Origin: Psammoneis japonica
Lineage: Eukaryota
Reading direction: 5' to 3'
NCBI GenBank assembly: GCA_008632985.1
Contig: QPGO01000003.1
Location: forward strand, 744,001 to 808,000
DNA: 64,000 nucleotides
Part shown: positions 1 to 61,428 of the stretch, piece after piece
Layout: each line of letters begins with the position of its first letter
Position numbering within the stretch: position 1 is the first letter of the stretch
The notes under the pieces: generated by a model
What the model was told of the DNA's origin: nothing
The model's database searches: none
What the model saw: the letters and a program-made list of their open reading frames with translations, nothing else
Program-made: the position numbers and the translations under genes

Positions 1-2150
1 AGACAGACAATGTTGCAGTGCATGAGGTGCTGACAATTGTGAACAACATGGTGAATTTTCACTTGCAACTTGGGTTGAGTTGCAGGTCTTGTGCTCACCT
101 TTTAGCTTCTGCACCCAGTTGACACAGTGACAGCAGTTGACAGCATTGGGGAAATGTGTTTGTGAGCCATGTGGTGAGTTTGGAGTTGGTGAGACCATGC
201 ACACACCTGTTGGCAAACTGACAAACTCCAACACAGAAGCTGAAAATTCAAAGCACAATGCTCAAAGAAGTGGCATTGTTCAAAGGCCAAGGATTGGAAG
301 TCATCAAGAATCAAAGAGCACACCAGGCTAGGAAGTTGTCAGGAATCCAAAGATGCACCTCATGTTGGCAGATTGTTGTAAACAAGCTGGCTGGATGAGG
401 GTGAAGAAACAATCTCTGGAGGGCCTTGCTGCAAATGAGCTGTCAAGAAGGGTCTGATGAAACAGGGTGTGGCAAAGTTGTGTTGGCATCAGTGAGACCA
501 AGTGTGCAACAGTCGGCAAGTCAAATGTTGGTCTGAAACAACATGGGCAAGGAGACAACTGAGTGCAGAACCACAAAAGATTTGAAGAGTGGGTGCATGA
601 CATCATTGCTGAACCAAGACTGCAGGCAGATGGTTGCACAGAAACTGCAAGGAAGATTGGTGAGTGTGCCGGAAGAATGTTCAGGCTGGAGATGCAGGTG
701 TTGGCATCTCTGCTGAGGCAGGAGAGTGCACCAAATGAGCCAGAGCATCTGTCAGGAGACAGCACATTGAAACAGGAAAAAGCAACCTGGTGCAAGCAAT
801 GTGATCACCATGCAAAACAGAATGCAACAACCTGCAAGACACAGAAGGCAAAGGCATTTGATGCAACCATGGGACAATGTGCAAAGGCCACCCACAACAA
901 GACTGCTGAAAGAGTGATGGAGTTCATGAGAGTCATGAAGGAGTGGGACATGGCAACACTGTTGGCAATTGCTTCTCAAGTCAATCTTGTTTGATGCAAA
1001 TTATGAGAAGATGTGTTTGCATGTCCAGGTGGTCAAAGCTTGGAGAAGCAGTTGGCACCAATTTGTCAAGATGAAGGAGAGGCACTTCAAGGTCAACACA
1101 ATTGGCTCACAAGCATTGTTGAGATGGCAGAAACATCCTGTGGCAGGATCATCTTAGAGGAAATCACCAAGACAGAAGATGGGTTCAGCAAGAATGCTGA
1201 CAACACCTGGAACAAAGAAAGAAACAAGTTGTCAGTGGCAATGCTGATGGAAGGCATCAAGGCACATTGGCACATCTTGAACAAAGACCTGCATTGGCAG
1301 TTTGCACTGGGGGCAGACAACAATTGTTCCAATTCAGCTGAGGAGGCACTGCAGGTGTTGAACACATGTGAGACTGACAAGAAGCCCAAGGGCACAAGTT
1401 TTGCACAGAACAAGAAGAAGCAGGTTAAATGCTGGAAATGTGGGTGAGGCTGGCCATGTGAAAAAGGGTTGCCCTGACAACAATGATGTGGGCCACAGAA
1501 ATTGGCAGAGCAGTTGAAGTGGTGTTGGGTGGCATGGTTTCCAAGTGTCATCCTCCTGTGCTGCTTGATGTGTGTGAGGTGAGTCAATTGACGGCTTGTG
1601 TGAAGGAGTGTGTTGGAAAACATTGGGATGGTGAGAGGCAGTTTTTGCAGGACAGACAGGTGGTGTTGCAGTGCAAGATGCACTGATGATTGTGGACAAT
1701 GTGGCAAATTTGCACTTGCAACTTGGGTTGAGTTGCGGGTCTTGTGCTCAATTTTTGGTTTCTGCACCTGGTTGACATGGGGCAATGGTGGCTGGCAGCA
1801 AATGTGTGTGTGAGCCATGTGGCCAGCTTGGAGTTAACAGGACCAAGCGCACACCTGTCAGCAAGTGCCATGAAACTCCAACAGGATCTTCTTGCTGCAT
1901 TTTGAATTTCTGGCAGCAGTGGCAACTGGAAACAAAGAAGCAGTGTTGGGGTGTGGGTGCGCGCAGAAAGAGGGGCAAGAGAAAAGGGCCAGGCTGCATC
2001 ACGCTGGATGAACTGCAGCACAAAATGAGATCAACTTTGTGTGGGCCACAAGATGTGAGAACATTGGATGGAGCACAGTCACAGTGAGGTGCTGTGCTCC
2101 TTTGATTTGTGCCATTTGACTGGAGTCTTGTCGTGTCACAATCCGAGCAC
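1..2150 (+). mobile_element. Degenerate LTR-retrotransposon relic with a gag zinc-knuckle remnant
   Basis: 1417-1475 reads KQVKCWKCG/EAGHVKKGCP (CX2CX4HX4C) across a 1-nt frameshift. An internal diverged direct repeat links ~3-230 and ~1652-1870. A related copy lies at ~11430-12660. The region is strongly CpG- and TpA-depleted. Confidence 0.65.
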
Positions 2151-2602
2151 GTGGGCAAGGTGGGTGCCCCCCAGGTGCTGCATGGCAGGCAGGCAGGTTA
2201 GGTGGGTGGGTACGGGCAGGCAGGTGGGCTGCTCTCTACTCTAGAGGCAGGTGGGACTCAACTGCCGGCAGCTGTGACAACAGAGGCAGGTTTTATGTAG
2301 GTGGGTGCGGGGCGGTCGGGTGCTGGGGCAGGTGCCGGCACTTGGCATGCCGGTGGGTTAGGTTAGGTTGAGGACATGATTGCCGTCTGGCCGTGGTACC
2401 GCATTTTATGTATCAGCGCGGCTATTCATATCTTTCATGTCTGAACACAATGAAATGTTACGAGGGAGTTTGAGTTTCTGTCAAATATAATTTTCCGGCT
2501 CGAGCGCCATGGCGACCGGCGTTTGAAAAGCAACTGCTTACACATACTGTATGCTAATCATCATCATTGTCTCTTCATAATAGTCTCTCTTTTTATTTTC
2601 TA

Positions 2603-5600
2603 ATGGATATCCAAGAAGAACGGGGAAGACCACGAAAAGCCTGGAAACAGACTCGCGATCGTTCTCGACGTGTTCGTTTCTGGGTCAAGCATTCGTTAAC
2701 ATCGCTTTCCCATACGGATGCCTTTGCTGCGGATGATCCTAGACGCCATGATGATCAATCTCTTCAAGAAAAGAATTCATTTGCTGATCTGGAAAGCAAC
2801 AGTAACAACAAAGAGAAGGAGAGCTTTCACGGAGAAGCTGCAACATGTAACAACATTGACGAGGCAATGGCCGCTTTGCATACGCTGCCGGATTGCGCCC
2901 ATACCGAAACAACAACGTGGCAAGACGCACCTCAGATACAAGCCGATTATGACTGGATTCTCGATGGTGACCCAGAATGGGCGGCTGAATTCGATAAGAG
3001 CCAGAAACTACAACAATCTCTGATGCAATTGGAATTGGAGGACCCGAATCTTCAACTAGACTTTGATGTACTGGGGAGACAAGAGAATCGGTTTGCTAAT
3101 TTTGATGACGATTATCCAAAGTCACAAGCTGTAGAACAGATCGATGGGGACAAACCTCAGCCAGAGATTGATGACAGCTTTGGGGACTTTGTTTCTGCAG
3201 ACGCTCATGAGGAGGAAGATGGGTTGACGACGCCACACAAAGGCAAGGCCGTAACAAAGACAGAGGAATCAAAGACACCAGAAAACTCTGAATCAAATAA
3301 TAATACAGCTGTAAAGGAACCGACAGAAACTAAAGCGAACATGCCGTGTACTCCTGTCACCAAGAAGATTGGTACGGAAGAGCAGGAAGAACCTCGATCC
3401 GTGCACAAGTTGTTTCCGCTTGCGGACGTTTCAAGCCCAGAAGGCCGCTTCACACGACGGTGGCAGCTCAAGACTCGTCAGTATGCTGATGATGTTGAAT
3501 CTGCGGATCATTCAGATGATGAAATGGAAGAGGAGTTGCCGCCAGAGTACTACACGGAAGATTTTGATGACACACTGGAACTGCTGCTCGATTTGCCTTG
3601 GGAGCATGTATCTTGTTGGCAAGAGGAAGAGAATGAAAATAGAGATATCAGTGTGGTTGACGAGCACGTGACACAACAGCTATCAAACCTCGATGCGCTG
3701 CATGCACGAGTTAGAACAAAGCTGCTTTGTAAGATTCAAACGAGAGAAGAATTGCTTCAGGCCGCAAACCAGCTTTTGCATGACGTGGATTACAGCTTGG
3801 AAATGGCTGTCATGTACGTGAAAAGGGGAAAAGAAGCGCTCAATATAGCTGAAGGGGATGAACAAGATTGCTCGGGTGTTCGAGGTGCCGCGACATTAAT
3901 TATGGACGCGGACCGACGAGATCAGTTGCGACAGGTGAATGGAGTCTTGGAGAAATGTCACAAATTGTTCGAGACAGAAAAGTCGATATTGGCAAGGATC
4001 GAATCGTTTGGCGTTGGACCCATGATGCAAGATATATCCGTGGCGCGGGAAGAGTATCGACAGGTGATTGAGTGCGCGGCTCAGTTACGAAGGGACGTTG
4101 ACCATGACGAAAGTCTTTCCAGGTTAGCTTGTTTGGATCCGCTTAGGGAGAGAGCTTGTACCGTGGTTGAGAGATTTCTTGATCAAATCAATAAGGCTTT
4201 GACTTTATTTATTGGTCGTTCATGTCAAGTTGTGGATGGCTTTTCGAGTTGCCAATACGAAACGCTACTTCGGGCCAAGCTTGATCTGAGCAAACGTCAC
4301 GCATCAGATAACGTGAATCGCGATGAATATGAGCCGGTCGATAGTCAGAGCTGGTCAAGCTGTATACTCGAATCTCTGTGCTATGAGGCAGACAAATCCT
4401 TGGCTCGTGCCTTGCTCGATCCAACACTGAGTGAGGAGGAATCCGGTGAATCAGCCTATGACAAGGAACTTATTCACTTGAGCTTTGAACTGAACAACGG
4501 GACCGGAGACTCGGCAAAGCTGCGTACCATGATGCACAATCTCGTAACCATCCGTTTCGACCTGGAAGCGAACCAGAATCACTTGCCTTGGGTATTTCAT
4601 AAGCTGTGCATGCTTCTTGCTGATGTCCTACACACTCACTACTTGCTCGTGCAATGGCATCAGACTCCATTTGATCAACGCAACAAAGATATGGCGTACC
4701 TACATCGACAAAGGGACAACGGAATACCAGAAGAAAAGAAAACCGACGATTGTGTGAGTGTCACTGGCGCGCCGAGGGACGTTACAAACAACTTTGCCGC
4801 CGATGAAACGGATGAATGCGTGCAAACAACCGCTAATCCACAGAGGTATTCAGCAGAATGGGTGGATGATGTTGCCAATGTCGAGCGAGAGCTCATGGAT
4901 ACCAAGCTTCCTCTTTGGAAACACTGCGAATCAGTGCTGACCACTTGCTTGGATCAATACCTGCATTTTGCAGCGAAGAAGAGTCTTTTCCAGGCTGGAG
5001 ACAGTCCTAAGGACGGAGACCAGGCCTGGGCTGAGGAGTTGGAGAGATTGCATGATGTACTGCGCCTAACCCAGCAATTTCTGTTATTAGGCCACGAATT
5101 TCTCGGGAGAAATTCCTCAGCTGAGGTGACTTCTTTAAAGTACGGAGGACACGAAAGTGAACTAAGGGAGAAATTATGTGATGTGTTTCGAAAGCACTTG
5201 CGAGTGGTTCATGTTGAAGCAATGAATTCTACCGGGGGGCTACTGTGCAATGAAGACTGGAAGCTGCTTCATGTTGACTACAGCAATGGAATGAAGGTAC
5301 ATGGAAATAATCCCGCTGCAGATGATGGCGGCAGCAAAAAGCTTGCAGTCAAAAAGGTAACTCATGGTTGGCTTGACGCTTTTCCCATCGCCTTTATGTA
5401 TCGTCCCTCAGAGGGTTTCTTCTTTCTTGACAAAGGTTGTAACAGGACTACTGGAAGGCTTTGCACCAGAGTTGAACAACAAGCAAAGGTGCTGGGATAA
5501 TCATTTTCACATGAAAGGATACATGTTTCTCCGGCATTTGCCAGAGTACGTGAATAGTGGGAACCCATTCACTGCTGCATCACATACAATTGGTGAAGAT

Positions 5601-7151
5601 GTTGTAAGATCCAGCTCTTCCCCTATCCGTGTCACCGAATTGGCAAGAATAGGAAACGGCTTGTCAGACAAGCAAGCACCGTTGGCGACTGATTCCTCAA
5701 CGACGTACGATGCAGATCTCTTTGACACGATATTCTCTCTCCTGGGCGCCGGTGACCGTGTATTCCCACCACTTGCGACTGAAAGCTCAGTACAAGGTCT
5801 CGCAAAGTGGAGCTGGCGACTCATAATGATCATGAAGAAGCTCCCCATCATTCTTGAGGACATCGCCGTCGTCTTTGCAAACATTTACGATCTCTATTTT
5901 ACCACTGTGTTTCGATTGTGCGCTGGTAATTCAGAGTACGAAAAGATCCTTCTTGGTGTGGAAGCACGGGCTTCTCATTTCGGTACATTGGGCGAAAGGG
6001 AACCAGCATCGGAACTCGCTTCTCCTAGAAACCCCAAGCGCCGTTCTACCTCTGGATCTGGCATTTTTAAACGATCCAGACGCCCGAGTCGGTCAAAGAC
6101 GCCTCCGCAAGTGTCCGCTACAGCGGAAGCTGACATTTGTGCTCCTTGCCAATCCATAAAGGAGCTGCGCGAGTTTATTCTACGTGGCCAATCGAGTCTA
6201 CAAGGCATTGTCAATCTCTCCAAGACTGAAGAATGGATGACGGACCCAACCATTTCGTCCACGGAGGTACAAGACAAGGACACAATGACTGCCATTTGTA
6301 CCGTCTTGCAGAAGCGAGAGGGTGCCGCATGGAGTTGTCTCTTTGTCGCAACGCTCTTGGAAACTTGTTGGTGCCAAGTACAAGAGACCCTTGTGCAGTC
6401 GCACCATCTAGACGGCATACTTGGGGGTACCGATACGGTAAATGACGCATTGATAGAGGCGCTGGCTCCCCTTGGGGCCTACACCAAGTCAGTCGTGACC
6501 ATTGCCCCGTCACTTTCTACTCTTGCCTCTCAGATTGCCAGCGCTCGAGCCGGATTAGTCAAGCCAGTCATTCAGGAAATCATTTCAGAATCATGTTGGG
6601 GCGAATCCGAGGTTCATGTTGACACGAATGACTATATCCATGAGCTGACCGACTGGTACACAACCCTGTGGCTCTTTTTGTCGTCCAATCATCGCTCGTC
6701 GTCATCGTGTTGTCCCAAGGTGTTGGATAAGACATGGAATCACCTAGTCCACGCCGCATACGGTTCCATTCTGGATGGCTTTTGCAGTGTCGTTGGTCAC
6801 GTGTCTAACTTTCCACCCGAAAGCATTGCTCTCATGAGTATGGATGTCGTTGCCTTTGAATCGAGCATGGCCGAGATTCACAAAAAATGCGACAGCGCCA
6901 CGTGCTTGCAGCGTTGGATCACGGCACTCTATCTACCCACCCAAGATTTGATGCAATGGGTTATCGAGAATCACCAAGATTATCATTTGCATCATGTCTT
7001 GGCGTTGGTTGCCAGTCATGTTGGAGATGATGGACCGAGTGATGAAGAAAGCAAGTTGATTTCTGAAATCAAGACGCTTTATGCCAACAACAGTGAAGCA
7101 GGCTCAAGCGAAAAACCGCTAGAGACTATTGAAAAACATAACACCTGCTAA
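2603..7151 (+). CDS. VPS50: Syndetin/VPS50-like EARP tethering-complex subunit; exons 2603-5356 and 5436-7151
   Basis: The 977-aa and 595-aa ORFs join in frame via a phase-0 GT..AG intron at 5357-5435. FRKHLRVVHVEAMNSTGGLLCNEDW and the C-terminal ILDGF..ESIALMSMD..WITALYLP..DLMQWVIENHQDY resemble syndetin. Confidence 0.75.
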
Positions 7152-7242
7152 CATAAGAATTGATATATTTGCAAAAAGACCAGTCGTGTAGTTGCACTAG
7201 TATCATTACGGATTCATACATGCGGCACACAAAAACGCATTC

Positions 7243-8380
7243 TTAGGGTGTAGATCGACAGGCGCGAAAGGGTACAGGCTTGGCCAATGTTTCCAAATCA
7301 CTCTCATCCATAACATCCAAGAGACTTGAGCTAACCTTGAGAATGCTGGGACAGGAAACAACGGTGGAATCATCGGGACTACCACACTCGTCATCTTCAG
7401 AAGACGCAGCGGGTAGAAAATCATCAAGAGGAGACGAGAGTACAACCGGAGACGAAAGAGGAGATGAAACATCGCGATCCAAAAGCTCATCCAAATCTTC
7501 CGTACCGTTATTGTGCAAGAGCGTCATGGCAACGGGATTTTCACATCCCCTACGTGAATCTTCACGTGTTGCTTGTGTAGATGATAATGTTGGTGATGTC
7601 GTCACCAAAAGACTTGAATCCAAACTTCCATCCAATTCTTCGGGTGGTGGTGTAGGAGGAGACCTACCGTGATGATGATGTATTATTTGATGACTCCTTG
7701 AAGACGCTGTTGACTTTAACAATTCTCGTGATGGAGTGTTTGCGGTTCCATCGTATCCGACTCTTCGGGGTGGCGGTTTCTTTTCCACCGTTTTTGGTTT
7801 TCGGGGTTCCACGCGGACTGCGCCAGTTGCTAGCATTCTGAAAAAAACAGGAAAAGAAAAACAGCATGGTGTAAGTAATACTTCTAAACAACATGTATCA
7901 TAACTTTTGCTTTGAAAAAACACGATATTCCTACCGTTTTGGTGTTTTAGGAACAAGTCTTAAAGCTCCTGTTTCCAGATGCGGTCGTTGCTTGGGTGTT
8001 AGATTTAGTTTTTGCAGCCTCGATGAGGGCGTTCGTATGGATGGCAGAGGAAATTCAGCTCGATTCGACAAGCCTCGTCCTGCTGCTTGTGGTTCCCGCG
8101 AGGGTGTGATTGGAGTAGTAGTTGCTGTCTGATGACTGACGTTTTCCTTATTCAATGGTTGCTTTTTTTGTTTTGACGTTGTTTGTATTGGAGCTACGTC
8201 TTGTCTTGAGCTGAAAATATTGTTCAGAGAAGTTTGAAAAGAAAAATCAGAACACCATACTATAGGTATGCAGTGCCATAAAAACAGTAAGTAAAATCCC
8301 ACGTACCGAGACTCTGTTTCACTCGAATCAGAGGATCCTTCTATAGCAGTATGGGCATCATCTCTTCTTGTAGTCGACAT
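7243..8380 (-). CDS. Hypothetical Ser/Pro/Thr-rich protein, 3 exons (~8380-8306, ~8211-7935, 7837-7243)
   Basis: Overlapping minus-strand ORFs are joined by GT-AG introns; intron 7934-7838 preserves frame (PKR|MLATG). Composition is normal genic. Confidence 0.55.
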
Positions 8381-9238
8381 CTTCACACGGATGGTATGAT
8401 TATTGAACAATACACAGGTACCTCTCGACAACGATATGCTGTGGAACCTTTCTGAAAATCCCGGATCAAGCCACAAAAAACAACACACAATTCCCCAATC
8501 TCAGAGACACCAATCAATTGTTTTCCCCAAGTCTCTAGCTTCTTTCATCCACAACAACAGCAACTCCCCTCCCCACACACAAAAATGACGCGGTCCAGCA
8601 AAGGACAGCGGCTGTAGAGTTTGCCTTCGTGGTGAACCACAAAAAACCGCGCAAAAAACGGCGGCTATCGGCTTTCAAGCTCTCATTCAAAAACCGTTGG
8701 CGTATGTTGGATAAAACGAACACTGCCGCCGCTGAATATTGAATATTCAAAATGAAATGTTAGATAGGTGTTATAACATTTATTTACTAACGAATACAAA
8801 TGTATACACAGGAAAATTGCAAGGGCTAGCGTGACATAATATTCAATCTTCAACTTGAATAGACAATAAAATTTGAAAACAAGAGCTCGAAAAGAGCTCG
8901 CGAATATTTCGAACAATTATGATTAGCTCGATTACAACCAAACACAAGCGTGACAGCCGATGTTGAAGTGATGACGTGGATAGCTGTTATTATTTATCTA
9001 TGACGTAATGAGATCTATTTTTCCTTTAATTGTGATTTCCGTTGGAATCCTCTTATCTTTTTATAAAGCTGTATGTGTGTCAATGTTTCATATTTTTGAA
9101 AGAAGGCGAATTCCTTCTTCAGAAAATACAATATAGGAAGCTACTAATATCATTTATTGAGAGCCAGTCGCGCAACAGAATGGTTTCGGCATTCGTCACA
9201 GTTTTCAGTACGCGGCTGCAGTGAAAAGACGCAGTGGC

Positions 9239-10088
9239 AATGACGACAAGTAGTACTACTACCGGTCAGATGGACACCGACATGGCGTCTCCACCACCAC
9301 CCCGATCATTGACAAGTGATGACTACCAACGTCGCTCTTGGGTTGTAGCCATGGATAAGAATCGTCGCGAGCGTTGTGAGGAAGCAAAGCACAACATGTC
9401 TGCAACAGAAGATTATGCTCAACCATTTCCAAATCAACTACCAGACAACGCTCATGAGGGAGGACAACTACTTCACGCTGTGAATCTACGTCCTCAACGA
9501 CGCGATTCTACTTTATGCTGTGTCGTATGTAGCTTAACGGTATGCATATGCTCGGAAGAACAACAAGAAGCAATGTCTCCGAGCTTTATTTTGGAAGCAC
9601 CGAGCGGAGGATCGAACGCCGGTGTTCTTCGCAGTACCCTTCAACCTCGTGAAACGACGATTATTCATCCATCTCAGGGCGACGCGTTAACGTCACCCTC
9701 TCCACCAGTCGATTCCTCTACCAAGACGACGGATCCTCCCCTGGCACTACCTGCACTGTTACCCATCAAGACACCCGACTTTTCACGTCCCAAGATTTCA
9801 AGTGCAATCATGAATCAACTCGTCAAGAATCAAACAGAAGAGGAGGCAAAACAACAACAAGCACAAGACAACCTACATAGTAGCATTGCACCACCTCCTT
9901 TGCTACCGATTGATACTCCCGATTTTTTACGTCCCACCGTGGGATTGTCCCGAAGCAACGTGGACTCTCTAAACTCGTCCTTGACGCTTTTGCAAGACAT
10001 GCCGGCCGCGCCGCCACCTTTTGAAGAAGTCGTGCTCATGACTCCTCCAACCATGGGACCAGGGAATAATAATTCATCATCTGCTTAG
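9239..10088 (+). CDS. Hypothetical Pro-rich protein with an internal repeat (LLPIKTPDF / LLPIDTPDF)
   Basis: 284-aa ORF with genic composition and no recognisable domain. It may contain an intron. Confidence 0.45.
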
Positions 10089-10399
10089 AGAGTACTACAA
10101 TAGTAATAATGTTCTAATAGAGAGAATTTGGGATCTTTTTGTGAATTATGTTTATTTCTATAGAAGCATGCCACAGCCCCAACATGTTGGCAGCCCAAGT
10201 CGTCACCCGACTCACTGCTCCTGCTCGGCAACCTGTGGAAACGCTACAGTTTACAGGCACATGTTAGTGGGTGCAGAGGACGGAAAAAGCGAGTCTCTAC
10301 ATCAGCTTGCTTTCTCTCCATCTTGAGCAATAAAAACGGAAACACAGTCCAGATCTCATGGGCCAGTTCACGGTCCCGAGTTGGACTGGCTTCTGGCCG

Positions 10400-13074: not shown

Positions 13075-13307
13075 GCATGCACCACATGAGCCAGGCCACT
13101 GAAGGGACATTACAGCTGAATAACTCGACTAAAACATTTTTTTGCGCGCTCGTCCGCCGTCCCACAATCCTCGTGCTTTTTGCACGAGAAAAAATGACAT
13201 CCACCATGGCAAGAAAATCGTTAGCATTGAAAATCGAGCAGGAATCTCATCTGGAGAGTCTTTTCACACCACATTGGGAGCATGTGGTACGGACATTTTT
13301 TTTCACA

Positions 13308-17166: not shown

Positions 17167-17249
17167 ACTAAAGAGCCCATTGTTGCGGCACCGTCACTCA
17201 CCTTTCCTTTTGCAACGCAACGAAATGAGAAATGTGGAGCACAGAAGTT

Positions 17250-17370
17250 GCACCGACAGAGACAAAGTCGACGGCAACGTCGTTGAGGATGAGAACAACA
17301 CCGTTGAAGACGACAACAAAGTTGTTGACGATGAGAATGATGCCGTTGGCGACGAAAATGCCGTTGGTCC
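17250..17370 (+). repeat. Imperfect ~21-bp tandem repeat (gttgaNgaYgaNaaYNNNNNN) in the 3' subterminal region of the transposon
   Basis: 4-5 consecutive units visible: gttgaggatgagaac, gttgaagacgacaac, gttgacgatgagaat, gttggcgacgaaaat. Confidence 0.6.
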
Positions 17371-19696: not shown

Positions 19697-19747
19697 AAAA
19701 ATGACAAGTGTGTGTTGGTAGCATTTGATTTTGTTGTATTTTCGTCT

Positions 19748-33406: not shown

Positions 33407-33457
33407 ATTTAAAGTTATAGTAACGAGGGTTATTCAACATGTAAATGGAGTGCAGTC

Positions 33458-51586: not shown

Positions 51587-54500
51587 CAGGATTTGAACAG
51601 GATTCAGGTGCTCGCGAAATGTCGCGCGCTGTTTAGTTTACCGCGCACAGTTTTGTGTGCTTTGGTTCCACGCGTTCGCGTGCGATGTAGTTTGCTTTCG
51701 AGCCACAAGGCTCACAAGAATGACAACAGCAGCCCGATTGTGCCGACTTGCACGTCTTTCGGCTCCTGCAATGGTCTCTGAGCGGAGACTCATCTGCCAT
51801 TTAGACAGCAGTGAGGAGTTGTTGTTTGAATTCTTGCCATTTGCCTTCAATTTCTGTCAGATTGACAGTCTTGCTCATTGTCAACCCATTGAGCAATCGC
51901 CATCGTCGTCGTTGATTTACCGACGACGCTGTTTCAATTCTGCGTGGACCTCCGCACACATTCTACGTACATCGGCAAGTCTGCGCACATTCAATGCCAG
52001 GCATCGGCAGGAATTTAACGTCACCGTCAAGTCTCCTTGCCGCTGGACATCTGGATTGATTGTGCCACCTTTCATCGCTGAAGACATGCATTCAACGGTT
52101 ACACCCAAGTCCACCCTTGATCCTCATCCCTTGACACACCCATTCAACGGTTAACGGTCAAGAACCCCACATGTTCCAAGATCTTCGTCGCTGAAGACAT
52201 GTGTGCACACAAACCTTCACGGCCAAGAACTTGAACCCACTCTTTGGACTGCAGCTTTGCTGCCACTCTACAAGCACACCGAGTCTATTGTGCCTCATCT
52301 GCCCCGGACTGCTGGTGCTCTGCAGTTCTGCCAGGTCCACCAGGACGACTGTGAGAGCAAGCAGCCGTGATTGCAGCCTGTGTTGTGGCGAGGGTGTTTT
52401 CCCATGTTTGTTCATTCGTCCACAGCGCCTGACGCCTGCGTCAACTGGCCAGCCTGATCGGGAAATCCAACCGACATAAAATGAGAACGGTTCGGGGGTC
52501 TTGTCCACCTCCAGTCAGCTTGCCTGCAGGGGTTTGCAACCCGCTGCTCCGCTCACAAGCAACCCAAAGCGCCGCAAGCTGCGGGTTCGGACGTGCCAGC
52601 ACAACTCTGCCGACCGGACAGGAAGTTTGGCACTTGACAACGAACGGGACATCACAGCCCGGCGACTTCTGATTTTAAGATGGTCCAAGATTTCAAGTCA
52701 AGTCCAGCTCAAGTCAAGTCTTTTTCAAGCCAAGTCACAAGTCAAAACTCCGAGTCAAGACCGCGCTCTAGATTGGTTCCTGTCTTTTGTTTCCACTGCA
52801 CCGTCCTCCATCATGGTTCTCACGCGACAGCAACAAACCGAAAGCTTTGGACACATTCCAGGCACTGTGCTCAATCAAGACGATGACAGCCCTCTTGTTC
52901 TGCCCTGTCCATCAACGGGATTGAATCGTGTGAGGAATTGTTCACATTCTCACCCACCCAAATTGATGCCCTCACTTGCAGAGATGGCGCCAATGCAGTT
53001 CTTTGCCACGGACCTGCAGAAACCTCCTGGCAGCTTTGATCAGCTTCTGCTTTGTCAAAGTTTGCAATGGTGATGATGTGACCAATGAACCCCAGTTGCT
53101 CACACCCGAGGAATTTCGCGACTGCCGCCTTGGCCCGGATTGCTTGACCTCTCTGGCCACTGGCGCAGCACCCTCTGCACCTGTGCCGAGTCCCTTGCCA
53201 TCCAAACCAGGTGAACCCAGTGCCATTTTGACACCAGCCTTGCACCGTGCCGCCACTCAGGTGTCCCCAAGAAGTGGTGTCAGTCGCGCCCCGCATGTCT
53301 TGACCAACCCGCCTGCAAGCAAACTTGGCCCAGTGCAGGATTGCAGCCCTTGCGCAGGCCCGCACTTTGAAACCAGTTGGGACACTCCACCCATGGCTTC
53401 CAAAGCTGCAGCCTTTGCACCCCACAAACCACGTGCTGCCAACCTCCACGTGTCGACTGACACCACTTCTTGGGGACACCTGAGTGGCGGCGCGGTGCAA
53501 GGCTGGTGTCAAAATGGCGCTGGGGCTGATCCAATTGGAGAAACGAGTCTCAAGGTGCAAGCCTTCGGGGATCGGATTGGAGCAAGACATCTTGTGGTGC
53601 AAGACTGCAGATGTCTGATTGGGGCAACCAGTCCCGTGCTGCAAGACTTCTGGAATCCAAAAGGACTTGCCAGTCTTGTGACACGAGTCTTCGGGGATCC
53701 AATCAGGAGGCCCAGTCTCGAGGCATGAGACTTGAGGCAACCAATCAGGAGGTGACAGGATTTGAACAGGATTTGGGTGCACGCGAAATGTCGCGTGCTG
53801 TTTAGTTCACCGCGCACAGTTTTGTGTGCTTCAGTTCCACGCGTTCGCGTGCGATGCAGTTTGCTTTCGAGCCACAAGGCTCACAAGAACAATGACAGCA
53901 GCCCAATCACACCGACTCACACGTCTTTCGGCTCCTGCAACGGTCTCTGAGCGGAGACTCATCTGCCATTTAGACAGCAGCAAGGAGTTGTTGTTTGAAT
54001 TCTTGCCATTTGCCTTCAATTTCTGTCAGATTGACAGTCTTGCTCATTGTCAACCCATTGAGCAATCGCCATCGTCGTCGTTGATTTACCGACAACGCCA
54101 TTTCAATTCTGCTTGGACCTCCGTGTGTGTTCTACGTACATCGGCAAGTCTGCGCGCATTCAATGCCAGGCATCGGCAGGAATTTAACGTCACCGTCAAG
54201 TCTCCTTGCCGCTGGACATCTGGATTGATTGTGCCACCTTTCATCGCTGAAGACATGCATTCAACGGTTGTGTCCAAGTCCATCCTTGATCCTCATCCCT
54301 TGACACACCCATTCAACGGTCAACGGTCAAGAACCCCACATGTTCCAAGATCTTAGGCGCTGCAGACATGCATGTGTGTGTCTTCACGGCCAAGAACTTG
54401 AACCCACTCTTTGGACTGCGGCTTTGCTGCCACTCTACAAGCACACCGAGTCCATTGCACCTGATTCACCAAGGACTGCTGGTGCTCCACAGTTCCACCA

Positions 54501-55632
54501 GGTCCGCGAGGACGACTGTGAAAGCAAGCAGCCGTGATTGCAGCCTGCGTTGGGGCGAGGGTGTTTTCCCGCATTTGTTCGTTCGTTCGTCCTCAGCGCC
54601 CAACGCCTGCGTCAACTGGCCAGCCTGATCGGGACATCCAACCGACATAAAATGAGAATGGTTCGGGGGTCTTGTCCACCTCTAGTCAGCTTGCCTGCAG
54701 GGGTTTACAACCCGCTGCTCCGCTCGCAGGCAACCCAAAGCACCGCCAGCTGCGGGTTTGGATGTGCCGGCACAACTCTACGGACCGGATGGGAAGTTTA
54801 GCACTTGACAACGAATGGGACAACACAACCCGGCAACTTCTGATTTTAAGACAGTTCAAGATTTCAAGTCAAGTCCATCTCAAGTCAAGTCTTTTTCAAG
54901 CCAAGTTGCAAGTTAAAACTCCGAGTCAAGACCGCGCTCTAGATTGGCTCCTGTCTTTTGTTTCTGCTGCACCGTCCTCCGTCATGGTCCTCACGCGACA
55001 GCAACAAACCGAAAGCTTCAAATGCATTCTAGGCACTGTGCTCAATCAAGACGATGACAGCCCTCTTCGTTCTGCCCTGTCCATCAACGGGATTGAATCG
55101 TGTGAGGAATTGTTCACGTTCTTGCCCACCCAAATTGACGCCCTCACTTGCAGAGACGGTGCCAATGTAGTGCCTTTGCCACGGACCCACAGAAACCTCC
55201 TAGCAGCTTTGATCAGCTTCCACTTTGTCAAAGTTTGCAACGGTGATGATGTGACCAATGAACCCCAGTTGCTCACACCCGAGGAATTTCGCAACTGCCA
55301 CCTTGGTCCGGACTGCTTGACCTCTCTAGCCACTGGAGCAGCACCCTCCGCACCTGTGCCGAGTCCCTTGCCATCCAAACCAGGTGAACCCAGTGCCATT
55401 TTGACGCCAGCCTTGCACTGTGCCGCCACTCAGGTGTCCCGTGGAAGTGGTGTCAGTTGCGCCCCGCATGTCTTGACCAACCCGCCTGCAAGCAACCTCG
55501 GCCCAGTGCAGGATTGCAGCCCTTGCGCCGGCCTGCACTTCGAGACCAGTTGGGACACTCAACCCATGGCTTCCAAAGCTGCAGCCTTTGCACCCCGCAA
55601 ACCACGTGCTGCCAACCTCCACGTGTCGACCG
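51587..55632 (+). repeat. Diverged direct duplication (~51587-53456 and ~53755-55632) containing a Copia 5' region and gag start
   Basis: Paired near-identical ORFs (51657/53826 and 52501/54672). A candidate LTR, TGTGA..TCACA, at ~52350-52656 is tentative. Confidence 0.8.
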
Positions 55633-55640
55633 CTGTCACC
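54984..55640 (+). pseudogene. CoDi-type (diatom Ty1/copia) gag N-terminus; second, frameshifted copy starts at 52813
   Basis: MVLTR..ILGTVLNQDDDSPLRSALSINGI..IDALTC..LTPEEFRNC resembles diatom copia gag starts, with Tyr replaced by Cys. Confidence 0.6.
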
Positions 55641-55796
55641 CTTCACAGCCTTCGTTTGGGAAGTGATGGAGATGACAACTTGCTTCTCGCATCTCCTGAT
55701 GGGGAGCCTCCTTTTCCCATCATTGAATCTGTTCACAACAGTTCAACCGGTTCATCAGATGGGGAGTTCAGGACATCCAAGCAGCTTCGTTGTCTT

Positions 55797-57135
55797 TGGA
55801 TCCCCCAAGTCTCGCACCTCGAGACTGGGCCTCCTGATCGGATGCCTCAAGTCTCGCACATCGAGACCAGGCCTTCTGATTGGATGCCTCAAGTCTCGTG
55901 CCTCGAGACCAGGCCTCCTGATTGGATGCCTCAAGTCTCGTGCCTCGAGACTGGGCCTCCTGGTTGGATCCCCCAAGTCTCGTACCTCGAGACTGGGCCT
56001 CCTGATCGGATGCCTCAAGTCTCGTACATCGAGACTGGGCCTCCTGATTGGATGCCTCAAGTCTCGTGCCTCGAGACTGGGCCTCCTGATCGGATGCCTC
56101 AAGTCTCGTACATCAAGACTGGGCCTCCTGATTGGATGCCTCAAGTCTCGTGCCTCGAGACTGGGCCTCCTGGTTGGATCCCCCAAGTCTCGCACCTCGA
56201 GACCAGGCCTCCTGATCGGATGCCTCAAGTCTCGTACATCGAGACTAGGCCTCCTGATTGGATGCCTCAAGTCTGGTGCCTCGAGACCAGGCCTCCTGAT
56301 CGGATGCCTCAAATCTCGTACATCGAGACCAGGCCTCCTGATTGGATGCCTCAAGTCTCGTGCCTTGAGACTGGGCCTCCTGAGATGCCTCAAATCTCGT
56401 ACATCGAGACTGGGCCTCCTGATTGGATGCCTCAAGTCTCGTGCCTCGAGACTGGGCCTCCTGATTGGATGCCTCAAGTCTCGCACCTCGAGACCAGGCC
56501 TCCTGATCGGATGCCTCAAGTGTCGTACATCGAGACTGGGCCTCCTGATTGGATGCCTCAAGTCTCGTGCCTCGAGACCAGGCCTCCTGATCGGATGCCG
56601 TACATCGAGACCAGGCCTCCTGATTGGATGCCTCAAGTCTCATGCCTCGAGACTGGGCCTCCTGATTGGATCCCCCAAGTCTCGCACCTCGAGACCAGGC
56701 CTCCTGATCGGATGCCTCAAGTCTCGTGTGTCGAGATTGGGCCTCCTGATTGGATGCCCCAAGTCTCGTGCCTTGAGACCAGGCCTCCCAACTGGACTCT
56801 CCACGTCTCGTGCCTCGAGACCGGGCCTCCCAATTGGATCCTCCGCGTCTCGTACCTCAAGACTCGGCCTCCGGATTGGATCCCTCAAGTCTTGCGCCAC
56901 GAGATTCGGCCTCCTGATTAGATCCCCCAAGTCTCGCACCTCAAGACTTGGCCTCCTGATTGGATCCCCGAAGACTCGTGTCACAAGACTGGCAAGTCCT
57001 TTTGGATTCCAGAAGTCTTGCAGCACGGGACTGGTTGCCCCAATCAGACATCTGCAGTCTTGCACCACAAGATGTCTTGCTCCAATCTGATCCCCGAAGG
57101 CTTGCACCTTGAGACTCGTTTCTCCAATTGGATCA
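55797..57135 (+). repeat. 42-bp minisatellite array 1 (~28 units plus a degenerate tail)
   Basis: Unit gagactgggcctcctgattggatgcctcaagtctcgtgcctc (ETGPPDWMPQVSCL). Confidence 0.95.
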
Positions 57136-57399
57136 GTCTCTCAGGAGATGCAGCTGAGCTTGCAATCGGATTGGTGGAACACAAGACCACCGCTTGCGCC
57201 TTTGAACTCATGCTTTCTCTGTTCCCCAAGTCGTGCAAATGCCATGCCACCCTGCTCGAGCACTGCTCTGTTTTTCTAGCAGCAGCCCAGTCTGGCAACC
57301 GTTCCAAGAACCAACAGACGGCTGTCAGTCTTTACGACCTTCGCTCAGGAAGTGATGGAGATGACAACTTGCTTGCATTGTCCTGCAATGTTGCCCCGC

Positions 57400-57600
57400 T
57401 GTTCAACATTGTCAGCCAGACCAAGCTTTGCTCCTTCCATTTCAAGTGCGGATGTGGAATCCCACAAGATCCCAAGTGTGCCTTGAGCTTTGAAAAGCAC
57501 AACGGCACCTGCAATTGGGGAGACGCAGCTCATCTCAAGATGACCCACTTGGAGAATGCAACGTTGCTCCAGGATCTTGATCCTTTCTTGTCTCCTCATG
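57400..57600 (+). pseudogene. Copia pol fragment (region preceding RT); duplicated at ~59375-59575
   Basis: FKCGCGIPQDPKCALSFEKHNGTCNWGDAAHLKM..LQDL resembles the copia FKYG..IP...AL..D..NG...W.DA...EM motif, with Tyr replaced by Cys. Confidence 0.6.
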
Positions 57601-58003
57601 TTTTGGTGCTTTGACTCCAAAGTTCTTTAGTCAATCCGAAGTCGAATCTGTTTCTGTGACTCCTCAAGCAAACTGGGGAGTGACAGGATTTGAACAGGAT
57701 TTGGGTGCGCGCGAAATGTCGCGCACTGTTTAGTTTACCGCGCACAGTTTTGTGTGCTTTAATTCCGCGCGTTCGTGCGCGATGTAGTTTGCTTTCGAGC
57801 CACAAGGCTCACAAGAAAAATGACAGTAGCCCGATTGTACCGACTTGCACGTCTTTCGGCTCCTGCAACGGTCTCTGAGCGGAGACTCATCTGCTGTTTA
57901 GACAGCAGCAAGGAGTTGTTGTTTGAATTCTTGCCGTTTGCCTTCAATTTCAACCGGTTCATCAGATGGGGAGTTCAGGACATCCAAGCAGCTTCGTTGT
58001 CTT

Positions 58004-59108
58004 TGGATCCTCCAAGCATGGCACCACGAGACGAGGCCTCCTGATTGGATGCCCCAAGTCTCGCACCTTGCGACCAGGCCTCCTGACTGGATGCCCCAAG
58101 TCTCGTGCCTCGAGACTGGGCCTCCTGGTTGGATGCCCCAAGTCTCGTACCTCGAGACTGGGCCTCCTGACTGGATGCCCCAAGTCTCGTGCCTTGAGAC
58201 CAGGCCTCCTGGTTGGATGCCCCAAGTCTCGTGCCTTGAGACCAGGCCTCCTGACTGGATGCCCCAAGTCTCGTGCCTCGAGACTGGGCCTCCTGATTGG
58301 ATGCCCCAAGTCTCGTACCTCGAGACTGGGCCTCCTGACGTCTCGTACCTCGAGACTGGGCCTCCTGACTGGATGCCTCAAGTCTCGTGCCGCGAGACCA
58401 GGCCTCCTGATTGGATGCCCCAAGTCTCGCACCTCGAGACCAGGCCTCCTGATTTCTCGCACCTCGAGACTGGGCCTCCTGACGTCTCGTACCTCGAGAC
58501 CAGGCCTCCTGACTGGATGCCCCAAGTCTCGCACCTCGAGACCAGGCCTCCTGATTGGATGCCCCAAGTCTCGTACCTCGAGACTGGGCCTCCTGATTGG
58601 ATGCCCCAAGTCTCGTGCCTCGAGACGGGGCCTCCTGATTGGATGCCCCAAGTCTCGTACCTCGAGACGGGGCCTCCTGATTGGATGCCCCAAGTCTCGT
58701 ACCTCGAGACCAGGCCTCCTGACTGGATGCCTCAAGTCTCGTGCCTCGAGACTGGGCCTCCTGGTTGGATGCCTCAAGTCCCGTACATCGAGACTGGGCC
58801 TCCAGATTGGATCCTCCATGTCTCGCACCCCAAGGCTCGGCCTCCGGATTGGGTCCCTCAAGCCTTGTGCCACAAGACTCGGCCTCCTGATTGGATCCCT
58901 CAAGTCTCGCACCTCAAGAATTGGCCTCCTGATTGGATCCCCGAAGACTCGTGTCACAAGACTGGCAAGTCTTTTTGGATTCCAGAAGTCTTGCAGCACG
59001 AGACTGGTTGCCCCAATCAGACATCTGCAGCCTTGCACCACAAGATGTCTTGCTCCAATCCGATCCCCGAAGGCTTGCACCTTGAGACTCGTTTCTCCAA
59101 TTGGATCA
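58004..59108 (+). repeat. 42-bp minisatellite array 2 (~23 units plus a degenerate tail)
   Basis: Same unit as array 1, with several internally deleted units. Confidence 0.95.
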
Positions 59109-61428
59109 GTCTCGCAGGAGATGCAGCTGAGCTTGCAATCGGATTGGTGGAACACAAGACCACCGCTTGTGCCTTTGAACTCATGCTTGCTCTGTTCCCC
59201 GAGTCATGCAAACGCCATGCCACCCTGCATGAGCACTGCTCTGTTTTTCCAGCAGCATCCCAGTGTGGCAACCGTTCCAAGAACCAACAGACGGCCATCA
59301 GTCTTTGCGACCTTTGCTCAGGAAGTGAAGGCGATGTCAACTTGTTTGCATTGTCCTGCAATGTTGCCCCGCCGTTCAACATTTTCAACCAGACCAAGCA
59401 TTGCTCCTTCCATTGCAAGTGCGGATGTGGAATCCCACAAGATCCCAAGTGTGCCTTGAGCTTTGAAAAGCACAACGGCATCTGCAATTGGGGAGACGCA
59501 GCTCATCTCAAGATGACCCACTTGGAGAATGCAACGTTGCTCTCGGATCTTGATCCTTTCTTGTCTCCTCATGTTTTGGTGCTTTGACTCCAAAGTTCTT
59601 TGGTCAATCCAAAGTCGAATCTGTTTCTGTGACTCCTCAAGCAAACTGGGGAGTGACAGGATTTGAGCAGGATTTGGGTGCGCGCGAAATGTCGCGCGCT
59701 GTTCAGTTTGCCGCGCACAGTTTTGTGTGCTTTAGTTCCGCGCGTTCGCGCGCGATGTAGTTTGCTTTCGAGCCACAAGGCTCACAAGAACAACAACAGC
59801 AGCCCGATTGTACTGACTTACACGTCTTTCGGCTCCTGTGATGGTCTCTGAGCGCAGCGGAGACTCATCTGCTGTTTAGACAGCAGTGAGGAGTTGTTGT
59901 TTGAGTTCTTGCCATTTGCCTTCAATTTCTGTCAGCTTTGCTGCACCAAAGGCCTCCAGAAGCTGGTCAAACCCATCAAAGCTTTTGCACTCCACACGCA
60001 TCTTGAGAGCAAGCTTCCAAATTGCCTGGACACCACCACACTTGATGCAGGCCATTGCTGCTGGCGGGTTTCTGGCAGCAATTGTGTCGTCCTCCGTGCC
60101 GCTGATCCACAGCTTTGAAGTGAGCTTTTGTTGGCAAAAACATTTGTTCCAGTTTTTCAAGCTGGGTGACAATCCACTGATGACATTGAGTTTTTGCTTC
60201 ATTGGAGCCAGATGCCAGTCAATGCAAATTTTTGATGGTGAATGGCCACTTGGAGTGCGTCCAGCACATCGGCTTGTGTGCACACCCGAGCTTCTCCCAG
60301 GCTTGGAAAGCATGTGGCAAAGAGTGAGACCAGAGTCAAAATGGAGTTTTTTTGCTGTTTCAGTTTCTTTTTGCCTCATGGAGTTTTCAACAGGCCGATC
60401 TTCCCCGTTCAAAGACTTTGGATGTCTCGCACATTTGCAGAGACTGACCAAACTGTGGCCACTTGCATTCCGGGGCATGCTGCTGCTGGCAGCAGAAGAT
60501 GCTGCACCCCAACTTGTGTTGTTGTTGTTTCATTGTTGTTGAGAATTCTTCGATTTTTATTTCTTCTTGGATTTCCACCCCATGATCAGCACCACTTGGC
60601 ACCTTTCATGGCAACATGAGTGCTCCTCTTGCCTTGCACTGTTCTGGCTGCTGTGGCAATGTTGGCATGTGAACCCAGCAGTCACCAAATGGCAAGAATG
60701 TGTTGCAGCTGGAGGCCCCAGAGCTGTCTGGACAGAACTCCCCAGGAAACTCCTGTGGACACAGCTGGAGTGGAGCACAGCAGCTTTTTTGCTGGTCGCT
60801 CTTGACCAAAGAACTTTTGAATCTTGTGCTCAGCTCACAGCTGATGTCTCTCCTGTGTGTGGCCAATCCTTCTGTTCCCAAAGGCCATGTTGGGGACAAC
60901 CCGCATGCCAGCATTGGGCAAATGTGTGGACTTGGTCAGCTCCACACATGTGCTTGTTTTCCCTGCCTGCGAGCGTGCAGCTTGAGATGACAAGGACATG
61001 TGCGGTGAAGGAGCAAAACACCACACTCGAAAGAAAACCCAACATGTGTCCCCCGCACATTTGGGCAAGCAAAGAGTGAAAATGGAACCACTCTTCATTT
61101 TCATTTCTGCTCTCAAAAGTCTCTTGCGAACGTCAACAACTTGTTCTGCTTGCATCTGTCGTTCAAGAACAACGTTTGTAAAAGTGTCCATAGTGCTATG
61201 ACGTCCACGCATGGCACACAGACGCCCAGCAGACAAAATTTTAAAAAACATCTAAAAACGTCAGAAAACAGGTGAAGAAACAATCGTTTTGGCTTGGAAA
61301 TTTTTGGAAATTGAAAATCCGTTGAAAATCCATTGTCGATGCTCAATGATGTGCATCATCATATCATCATCATCATCATCATCTCTGGCATCTCGCATGT
61401 TATCTCGACCTGTTGCTGTGCAAACATA

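Follow-up and report, generated by a model that had tools for sequence, protein, structure and literature searches.

TpA-depleted mobile and repeated DNA beside ordinary genes in Psammoneis japonica: footprints of a probable TpA>TpG/CpA genome defence

In a 64,000-nucleotide stretch of the Psammoneis japonica genome (assembly GCA_008632985.1, contig QPGO01000003.1, forward-strand positions 744,001 to 808,000; called the window below, with positions counted from its first letter), ordinary genes lie beside blocks of mobile and repeated DNA from which the dinucleotide TpA has almost disappeared. What removed it is the question that this locus raises. The answer reached here is that a host process very probably turns TpA into TpG or CpA in mobile and repeated DNA after its insertion, and does so as a mutational genome defence of the same kind as that found in the chlorarachniophyte Bigelowiella natans (Mettrop et al., 2026 preprint, 10.64898/2026.01.13.699255). 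A sequence-only reading of the same DNA had inferred a second, strand-symmetric A:T>G:C process at TpA on repeated or mobile DNA, distinct from the decay of CpG. This central inference is supported by TA-poor windows that keep their CpG, by copies that differ as TG versus CA, by the replacement of tyrosine with histidine or cysteine, by the presence of a DNA transposon among the affected elements, and by separately assembled contigs which carry the same letters.

Dinucleotide composition was expressed as an observed/expected ratio (o/e). In 1-kb windows, TA o/e was found to be 0.00-0.12 over 1-2000, 11000-13000, 14000-17000, 39000-51000 and 60000-61000, and 0.04-0.25 over 51000-60000; gene-bearing windows gave 0.40-0.73, the same range as the Pfam-domain genes of the window. 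Genic DNA is itself moderately TA-poor overall (o/e 0.57). Two depleted sets were chosen, with the TA density of genic DNA as expectation: the first (18,103 bp) holds 50 TA against 740 expected (Poisson log10 P = -242), and the second (9,299 bp) holds 64 against 380 (log10 P = -89). Together, these approximately 27 kb contain 114 TpA, where the neighbouring genes predict about 1,120. The strand-symmetrised TG/CA o/e is 1.84 and 1.47 in the two sets compared with 1.21 in genic DNA, TG and CA rise about equally, and GC content is nearly constant (0.485 and 0.517 versus 0.464). The gain in TG/CA agrees with the summed loss of TA and CG within about 5-25% (39.8 versus 41.7 per kb in one set and 16.2 versus 20.6 per kb in the other). 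Over 128 windows of 500 bp, the TA and TG/CA ratios are inversely correlated (r = -0.78); 53 of these windows have a TA o/e below 0.2, with a mean TG/CA o/e of 1.75 as opposed to 1.23 in TA-normal windows. The TA-poor windows are grouped in four contiguous blocks, and at the borders composition switches within one or two 250-bp bins, making them sharp to about 250 bases. The sliding-window ratios thus bear out the earlier description of TA-poor, TG/CA-rich regions which end abruptly beside normal genes.

Deamination of 5-methylcytosine in methylated transposons (CpG decay) is another source of TG and CA, and the older blocks bear its mark, CG o/e having fallen there to 0.03-0.2. However, it cannot remove TA. 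When the 53 TA-poor windows were sorted by CG o/e, 31 fell below 0.3, 11 lay at 0.3-0.6, and 11 retained a value of at least 0.6; among 60 TA-normal windows, 57 were at or above 0.6 and none was below 0.3. Since some TA-poor windows have kept their CpG, two processes feed TG/CA, and the one acting on TA is able to proceed without the other and to go further. With those 11 of 53 windows, CpG decay fails as an explanation by itself, and TA loss is separate from it.

The best characterized victim is an element of 4441 bp on the forward strand (13080-17520). It is bounded by terminal inverted repeats (TIRs) of 16 bp which start with CAC, at 13080-13095 and 17505-17520 (CACCACATGAGCCAGG versus CACTACGTGAGTCAGG), and it is flanked by a 5-bp target-site duplication (TSD), GCATG, with a left copy at 13075-13079 and a right copy at 17521-17525, both read on the forward strand. 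The TIRs match at 13 of 16 bases; all three differences are transitions, two of them TA/CA and CG/CA. The shorter pair CACCACAT / CACTACGT, which had been put forward as evidence for the direction of change, is present at 13080 and 17520 and proved to be the tip of this 16-bp TIR flanked by GCATG. A TSD of 5 bp together with TIRs that start with CAC is presumably what defines Transib. Inside the element lies the decayed transposase reading frame P0109 (14404-17166, +), which contains five in-frame TGA codons and one tyrosine in 915 residues and ends in TAA. Although 171 homologs of P0109 were found at E <= 0.001, Pfam offered weak DUF1280 matches and one RAG1 match (to the homolog P0119, E 0.0097) under its cut-off, and RAG1 or Transib chains were not found in the PDB by sequence searches or by searches with an 18-sequence profile. 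The fold search was made with a structure model of P0110, the closest intact homolog, and not with the window copy. That model has a mean predicted local distance difference test score of 68 (80-95 in the core) and matched 44 PDB chains at E <= 0.001 in Foldseek, all listed ones being RAG1 or the amphioxus RAG-like protein BbRAGL; the best E value was 6e-9, the target-normalised template-modelling score was 0.5-0.66, and HzTransib of Helicoverpa followed at E 3.8e-3. With regard to a DDE catalytic triad and a Cys2-His2 zinc site, an alignment of 18 homologs contains an invariant D, C, C (at D+19 and D+22) and H, and the window copy is decayed. We take the D/C/C positions to correspond to RAG1 D708/C727/C730. 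On the TIRs, the TSD, and the RAG1-core fold predicted for P0110, the element is assigned to the Transib/RAG1-like cut-and-paste DNA transposons, and the fold matches to RAG1 core, BbRAGL and HzTransib agree with the earlier label of a RAG1-type transposase. Summed depth in the sequencing run X1, described below, is 120-250 over 12674-17342 (2-4 times that of genes), i.e. a few copies.

In the interior of the transposon (14000-17200), TA o/e is 0.02-0.10, while CG o/e is kept at 0.6-0.83. Its first 900 bases (13080-14000) are only half depleted, with 15 TA, and its last 92 bp (17429-17520) hold eight TA, compared with none in 17170-17428 and almost none in the coding interior. The weaker depletion at the ends and in the first 900 bases hints at a domain-like trigger, such as chromatin or transcription, rather than a homology-based one.

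The consequences of TA loss are legible in the protein. Tyrosine makes up 0.11% of the frame at 14404-17166, compared with 2.11% in ten host open reading frames (ORFs), and the median over 151 listed proteins, query included, is 2.56%. P0109 was aligned with 40 homologs, after those shorter than 350 residues, those with less than 1% tyrosine and all beyond the first 40 had been dropped. Of ten columns in which tyrosine is the plurality residue, P0109 keeps none (H 3, C 2, F 2, and V, W and T once each), compared with 158 of 321 other conserved columns (Fisher p = 0.0019). In the 22 columns where at least 25% of homologs have tyrosine, the query has H in seven, F in four, C in three, N in two, six other residues once each, and Y in none; histidine or cysteine thus occupies 10 of 22 columns, against a background of 6.3% for the two residues combined. 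These losses imply that the transposase family was not TA-poor while functional. The claim that conserved tyrosines had become cysteine or histidine therefore stands, although at sites other than those which had been named. The proposed change of a Y-x-C-x2-C motif into C-S-C-P-A-C does not hold, because the first column is already mostly cysteine in the aligned homologs, with a few Y, H and F. Nor does a copia FKYG motif turned into FKCG: the ORF with FKCG (57441-57452) matched no Pfam family and gave no usable hit in the ESM Atlas, and a copia domain was not found in the window. Among the 150 listed transposase relatives, four environmental proteins of 126-279 residues (P0141, P0146, P0204 and P0218) contain no tyrosine at all; P0141 and P0146 are near each other in sequence and come from ENA and JGI assemblies. 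Judging by these sequences, copies that suffered the same process may exist in other organisms. Metagenome scans with P0146 and with the window ORF returned pattern matches and no confirmed relative.

Comparison of copies within the window reveals the direction and timing of the change. Pair A consists of two tandem 1.9-kb copies on the forward strand (51584-55630; copies at 51584-53457 and 53753-55630) which are 92% identical, TA-poor and CpG-retaining, and 127 of their 149 mismatches are transitions. Aligned dinucleotides in this pair are TA/TA 10, TA/TG 6, TA/CA 8, TG/CA 30, CG/CG 77, CG/TG 18 and CG/CA 17. Pair B, whose copies lie at 57035-57951 and 59008-59929 on the forward strand and are 94.5% identical, gives TA/TA 4, TA/TG 4, TA/CA 3 and TG/CA 4, and pair C (11460-12543 versus 544-1596, 79% identical) contains 33 TG/CA-discordant dinucleotides. 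A site that reads TG in one copy and CA in the other requires each copy to have changed once, from TA or from CG. Such sites number zero in a genic tandem duplicate, three in a pair of kinase paralogs and zero in an intergenic inverted repeat, all of which served as controls. With the discordant sites set aside, 14 of 24 TA sites in pair A have changed as opposed to 35 of 112 CG sites, so TA loss appears faster than CpG loss there. In a 300-bp segment present in four copies, five TG/CA-discordant columns keep a third state, which is TA in four and CG in one. Wherever TA takes part in a difference between copies of pairs A, B and C, its partner is TG or CA and never CG (0 of 24), and the four-copy columns agree; these changes are mixed with CpG>TpG/CpA changes from the second process. 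The 42-bp minisatellites tell the same story. Using only units of exactly 42 bp (n = 40) and leaving out other lengths, columns 28-29 were found to read TA in about 11, TG in 19-20, CA in 9 and CG in 1, and another column pair varies between TG and CA; the TAC/TGC/CAC codon variation pointed out earlier is thus real. The change happened in place, after insertion.

Duplication alone was examined as a trigger, and it fails. A young tandem duplication in gene-rich DNA (21665-23449), 97% identical, has kept its TA, with TA/TA 29, TA/TG 2, TA/CA 2 and TG/CA 0. An intergenic inverted repeat (26198-27785), whose arms are 94-98% identical, has likewise kept its TA, with TA/TA 20, TA/TG 5, TA/CA 3 and TG/CA 0. 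The two duplicates thus retain 29 and 20 shared TAs without any TG/CA discordance, their age relative to a sexual cycle not being established, and they indicate that duplication by itself does not set the process off. For this reason, and because some 0.7-0.85 kb of TA-poor DNA is single-copy, the terms repeat-restricted and RIP-like (RIP being repeat-induced point mutation), when meant as homology-dependent, are not retained. The 850-bp tandem duplication (21665-22516 / 22516-23449) spans the end of a MEKHLA-domain ORF and runs into the 3' end of a Rieske/leucine carboxyl methyltransferase (LCM) gene. The inverted-repeat arms (26198-26651 / 27151-27785) are separated by about 500 bases and have ordinary TA. 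Of their 26 mismatches, eight are TA versus TG/CA, out of 28 TA sites, which is several-fold above other positions; these could be the same process at a low level.

Further evidence came from X1 and X2, two public sequencing runs; three runs were found, all of one sample and study, which is possibly the source sample of the assembly. Read depth was compared outside the 22-kb right-hand block. An X1 contig of 9,793 bases covers 1692-11489 with seven differing letters, five of them in its 1-kb TA-poor part and two in 8.3 kb of genes. Three further X1 contigs of 852, 847 and 909 bases, inside 12353-16903, differ from the window by 7, 6 and 11 letters. Agreement is therefore 99-99.9%, and the word depth of these contigs (52-59) resembles that of single-copy genes (about 59), which argues against strand-specific misreading. 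A check in independent sequencing had been proposed earlier; the X1 contigs carry the same letters and exclude quirks of assembly or polishing, but they are not fully independent of the assembly. Among the 40 rows listed of 1,047, 22 window-versus-contig sites fall in 10500-17200, and 17 of these are swaps between pyrimidine-purine (YR) dinucleotides: 11 CG versus TG/CA, four TG versus CA, and two TA versus TG/CA. Against X1 contigs of the same depth, the window differs by about 8 letters per kb in the elements versus about 0.24 per kb in the genes. With its TG versus CA sites, this has the look of divergence between alleles or within the culture under the same process, and homologs or culture cells would still be diverging at YR steps in elements at about 30 times the rate in genes. 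The process would still be active or have been so recently.

Several observations weigh against a targeted TpA-erasing process as the full account. The evidence here consists of footprints, no de novo mutation having been seen, and X1 is one sample, maybe the assembly's own, from a platform that is not on record. Uniform rates predict about two TG/CA-discordant sites in pair A from TpA or CpG alone, where 30 were seen, so rates must have been uneven or episodic, with a class of sites that mutated in nearly every copy. TG/CA discordance can also arise from CpG, as it did in one of the five informative four-copy columns. A 4-mer product model on the genic baseline predicts the gains poorly (r = 0.05 and -0.24). 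The transposase was compared with relatives rather than with a family consensus or an intact copy of these elements, its closest intact relative being only 27% identical. The mutated domain does not coincide with the transposon ends, which like the first 900 bases are less depleted. Finally, no element type can be recognised in about two thirds of the TA-poor DNA.

Weighing these points, the preferred scheme is still one in which a host process would convert TpA to TpG or CpA, i.e. make an A:T>G:C transition on either strand. Conversion takes place after insertion and is fast enough to take 90-95% of TpA out of mobile or repeated elements, while adjoining genes stay normal. It works at the DNA level, independently of the CpG methylation decay that also affects older elements, and duplication does not suffice as a trigger. 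Composition, direction of change, timing after insertion, strand symmetry, separability from CpG decay and presence in separately assembled contigs of a one-sample run are shown by the data above; the process would be enzymatic, with targeting presumably by chromatin state or silencing. Coding capacity would be destroyed through changes of tyrosine to cysteine or histidine and related changes, and it is on account of this destruction that the process would act as a mutational genome defence.

The context of the surviving sites bears on the chemistry. Of 107 surviving TAs, 62 are in YTAR (Y, pyrimidine; R, purine), compared with 166 of 1234 in genic DNA (odds ratio 8.9, p = 5e-24), and ATAT, GTAT and ATAC have no occurrence left in depleted DNA. 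For xTAy, a product of two per-strand terms describes survival well, and most of the TG gain is in xTGY, chiefly TGC/GCA (13.1 of 16.2 per kb in the CpG-retaining set). The favoured site would accordingly be 5'-T-A-Y-3', although the 36 polarisable events in the pairs are too few to separate an effect of the +1 neighbour from one of the -2 neighbour. T-A-C is where the tRNA adenine deaminase TadA acts by nature, and early base editors made from TadA share this context. It is this context that makes a TadA/ADAT-like enzyme acting on DNA the leading mechanism, and deamination of adenine to hypoxanthine by such a deaminase with a preference for 5'-T-A-Y-3' is put forward tentatively, as a possibility that falls somewhat short of probable; adenine deamination had also been one of the two candidates of the sequence-only reading.

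The same targeted process might employ another chemistry, in which thymine is modified, for example by TET/JBP-type hydroxylation at T-A, and then mispairs or is mis-repaired to C, so that TpA becomes CpA on one strand and TpG on the other. A strand-symmetric footprint fits attack on A or on T and cannot tell which of the two was attacked, and the context of the surviving sites can be described just as well through the influence of the 5' neighbour on T. A preference for T followed by A is seen in base J of kinetoplastids and in the 5-hydroxymethyluracil of dinoflagellates. Nevertheless, 5-hydroxymethyluracil normally reads as T, and we know of no thymine-modified base of such a kind in diatoms; thymine modification is considered unlikely. 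Error-prone repair synthesis in silent chromatin, in which a Pol-eta-like polymerase with its WA hotspot puts G in place of A after T, had been a candidate of the sequence-only reading. A>G at TA is indeed the preferred error of Pol-eta. However, such a polymerase should also erode AA, and AA o/e is 1.22 and 1.27 in depleted DNA versus 1.16 in genic DNA; because AA is not depleted, the WA hotspot fits poorly. Moreover, AG o/e rises only from 0.88 to 1.02, and in B. natans the hypermutations were at TpA in all but one of 231 (Mettrop et al., 2026 preprint, 10.64898/2026.01.13.699255), which makes this route quite improbable.

Other explanations would dispense with a process on DNA altogether. 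Elements that were TA-poor from the start, by donor composition or by selection against UpA in RNA, would need nothing mutated in place, and the host genes are themselves moderately TA-poor, while intact copies of the same family stood outside the comparison. Yet a transposase with one tyrosine in 915 residues, among relatives with a median of 2.56%, does not look functional; copies of one element differ as TG versus CA and keep TA at some sites; and the trait is common to unrelated types (DNA transposon, LTR-like repeats, where LTR is long terminal repeat, minisatellite and unclassified DNA), non-coding parts included. An origin of this kind is largely refuted and is held to be very improbable. 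A technical artefact, through a modified base or a basecalling or polishing bias that reads TA as TG or CA in heterochromatin, draws some strength from the unrecorded platforms of the assembly and of X1, the latter perhaps its source sample. It is opposed by the agreement of the separately assembled X1 contigs at full rather than half depth, by a frame that carries five in-frame TGA codons and ordinary divergence, and by the B. natans result, which came from Illumina sequencing of mutation-accumulation lines (10.64898/2026.01.13.699255), and an artefact is given hardly any credence. Smaller still is the chance that element transcripts underwent A-to-I editing by an ADAR-like enzyme and were returned to DNA by reverse transcription. 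ADARs are animal enzymes. They prefer U before the edited A and target double-stranded RNA derived from repeats, as is also said in the Discussion of the B. natans preprint (10.64898/2026.01.13.699255). Against this, the best-characterised victim here belongs to the cut-and-paste DNA transposons, which lack an RNA stage, the two strands show about the same effect (TG rises as well as CA, and the tyrosine columns give H 7 versus C 3 and H 3 versus C 2), and tandem copies and minisatellite diverged in place. Since a DNA transposon, tandem units and a minisatellite were hit and TG and CA rose together, RNA editing fixed by retro-copying is largely refuted.

A host process that erases TpA from DNA is thus preferred, and such a process has already been described in B. 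natans, so the present case is neither a first description nor categorically new. According to that preprint, integrated DNA of nucleocytoplasmic large DNA viruses (NCLDV) and virophages undergoes TpA>TpG/CpA hypermutation in this chlorarachniophyte. An integrated giant virus and a virophage (two hypermutable viral regions) received 231 of the 302 nuclear single-nucleotide mutations seen in mutation-accumulation lines; A>G or T>C accounted for 230 of these 231, and each of the 230 was at TpA. The rate was about 6e-7 per site per generation, raised about 1000-fold and only in some lines; TpA-poor coding sequences (CDS) were enriched for DDE and reverse-transcriptase domains, and an ADAT2 homolog was proposed as the enzyme (Mettrop et al., 2026 preprint, 10.64898/2026.01.13.699255). 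Both systems share the TpA target, the products TpG and CpA, a loss coupled to CpA and TpG gain in clusters, and the hitting of foreign or mobile DNA with host genes spared, transposase- and reverse-transcriptase-type sequences being among the TpA-poor CDS there; mobile targets and spared genes were found here as well (Transib/RAG1-like transposon and multi-copy repeats, with Pfam genes at 0.40-0.73). They differ in the host, rhizarian there and a diatom-like stramenopile here, and in the targets, which are giant-virus inserts there and a Transib/RAG1-like transposon, LTR-like repeats, tandem units and a minisatellite here. Depletion, too, is deeper here, with o/e 0.02-0.12 near saturation compared with a Rho of 0.45 reported for an NCLDV region, and it stands beside strong CpG decay and with surviving TAs mostly in YTAR. 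Conversely, a rate was measured in lines there, and only a footprint is available here. The preprint's text does not contain the words diatom, trinucleotide, flanking or context, although its supplements may hold an extended motif (10.64898/2026.01.13.699255).

Other systems are more distant. Ascomycete RIP is also a mutational genome defence, with transitions in one dinucleotide context of repeated or mobile DNA and a sharp-bordered footprint of dinucleotide bias. However, RIP changes C to T at CpA and creates TpA, whereas the A:T>G:C change seen here removes it: the RIP signature of raised TpA and lowered CpA/TpG is absent, with TA at 0.04-0.12 and CA/TG at 1.47-1.84. Unlike in RIP, GC content is about 0.49-0.52 without AT-rich isochores, and homology dependence is not seen, two young gene-rich duplicates being unaffected. 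The APOBEC/AID and ADAR enzymes of animals resemble the present case as deaminase-type hypermutators of selfish nucleic acids with a neighbour-base signature. Nevertheless, APOBEC/AID change C and not A, and ADAR acts on RNA and would leave a one-strand footprint in retro-copies, in contrast to a DNA transposon hit on both strands. Full-text literature searches found no report of TpA loss in diatom repeats, and a 2025 preprint on diatom transposons contains no mention of TpA, dinucleotide, RIP, deamination or Transib.

The remaining depleted DNA belongs to less well defined elements. At the left edge, a TA- and CpG-depleted multi-copy repeat (1-2199; TA o/e 0.04-0.06, CG o/e 0.04-0.09) is cut by the window start. 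It contains LTR-like direct repeats at 11-233 and 1664-1883, its interior resembles 11460-12543 in self-BLAST, and the first run of TAs past it begins at 2199. Summed X1 contig depth over 1-2000 is 1227-1806 compared with about 59 for genes (roughly 20-30 times). A second TA- and CpG-depleted block (10492-13079) lies left of the transposon and has two TA in the ten 250-bp bins of 10501-13000. Within it, 11340-12673 is multi-copy (X1 depth 626-849, 10-14 times genes), whereas 10673-11339, though likewise poor in TA, occurs once at a likeness of 80% or more (depth 59). An ORF at 12289-12891 contains a weak gag-like zinc knuckle (zf-CCHC, E 0.0017), under the Pfam cut-off.

The right-hand block (38872-61178) opens with 12.7 kb of TA- and CpG-depleted unclassified DNA (38872-51583; TA o/e 0.02-0.12, CG o/e 0.03-0.6, TG/CA o/e up to 2.3), whose only internal repeat is 44935-45216 versus 45437-45725. 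Beyond the pair A copies come a 42-bp minisatellite array (55742-57034, +), found with Tandem Repeats Finder (TRF) and having higher-order periods of 84 and 126 bp, the first unit B copy with the FKCG ORF (57035-57951, +), a second 42-bp array (57949-59010, +; TRF and unit table), and finally the second unit B copy and, from there to the right border, more DNA depleted in TA and CpG (59008-61178, +), with TAs resuming at 61179. Among 192 ORF references from depleted DNA (stop-free ORFs of at least 75 residues; 148 + 44), no Pfam family scored above its gathering cut-off, and the only rows at E <= 0.01 were the zinc knuckle already mentioned and DUF7130 on one ORF, 'Coiled' and zf-CHY, all under cut-off. 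The earlier term 'TE regions' (for transposable elements) therefore applies in part: 13080-17520 is the only stretch classified as such, several others are multi-copy, 10673-11339 is single-copy and 38900-51400 is unclassified.

The window is nuclear DNA of a diatom-like stramenopile, and the genes between these blocks are ordinary. They encode common eukaryotic domains (Syndetin_C, MORN, MEKHLA, two protein kinases, RabGAP-TBC, Snf7 and a 2-oxoglutarate (2OG)-Fe(II) oxygenase). A 778-residue protein (23279-25615, -) joins a leucine carboxyl methyltransferase-like domain to a Rieske [2Fe-2S] domain; its best named relatives are from Ditylum brightwellii (70% identity), Corethron and Triparma/Bolidomonas (54-57%), and the fusion is kept across diatoms, bolidophytes and other ochrophytes. 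At 28274-29749 and 30320-31711 (+) lie two tandem paralogs for membrane-anchored protein kinases, with a DNA identity of 73%. The contigs of run X2 lie on genes and next to none on depleted DNA, which counts neither for nor against silencing. Those within 2657-7130, 7183-8210 and 17710-19714 omit 5353-5431, 7838-7934 and 19352-19438, like spliced transcripts. The omitted segments look like short introns, and the ORFs at 2558-5500 and 5361-7151 would then form one long gene which ends in Syndetin_C. The 5' part of the MORN-repeat gene (17500-18500) has an intermediate TA o/e of 0.23-0.30 with full CpG (1.0-1.3), which may reflect a Glu/Lys-rich coiled-coil coding bias or spill-over from the adjoining element. 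A gene for an AlkB-like 2OG-Fe(II) oxygenase (PF13532; 61639-62904, +), a family of DNA/RNA base repair, is the immediate neighbour of the depleted block on its right side, probably by coincidence.

What is new is the occurrence in a second lineage, the near-saturation over several element types, the mostly-YTAR survivors and the gene-rich duplicates left untouched. These extend the earlier description by indicating ordinary transposons as targets, by setting the process apart from CpG decay and from duplication as such, and by offering a candidate for an extended motif. The sequence context, with YTAR survivors and gains mostly in TGY/RCA, narrows the search for the enzyme, which would be of interest to genome editing if it is truly a DNA adenine deaminase. 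A broader and rather doubtful idea is that diatoms and chlorarachniophytes, perhaps much of SAR (stramenopiles, alveolates and rhizarians), share a dedicated DNA adenine deaminase. This natural A-to-G base editor would be descended from TadA/ADAT2, would have kept its taste for 5'-T-A-C/T-3', and would be steered to silenced foreign DNA, where its removal of TpA from transposons and integrated viruses would outpace the loss of CpG through 5-methylcytosine; the mild genome-wide TpA deficit of these algae could be its background activity.

For genome analysis, TA o/e with an excess of TG/CA is a simple marker by which the process may be sought elsewhere, and repeat annotation is affected, as hypermutated elements lose tyrosine, isoleucine and stop codons and escape domain searches. 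To our knowledge, the mutational genome defences known until the 2026 preprint (RIP and APOBEC/AID) all attacked cytosine, and removal of TpA by A:T>G:C change would be a different chemistry. Its long-term outcome is now seen in a second, ecologically dominant algal lineage, so it looks less like the peculiarity of a single species than like something widespread.

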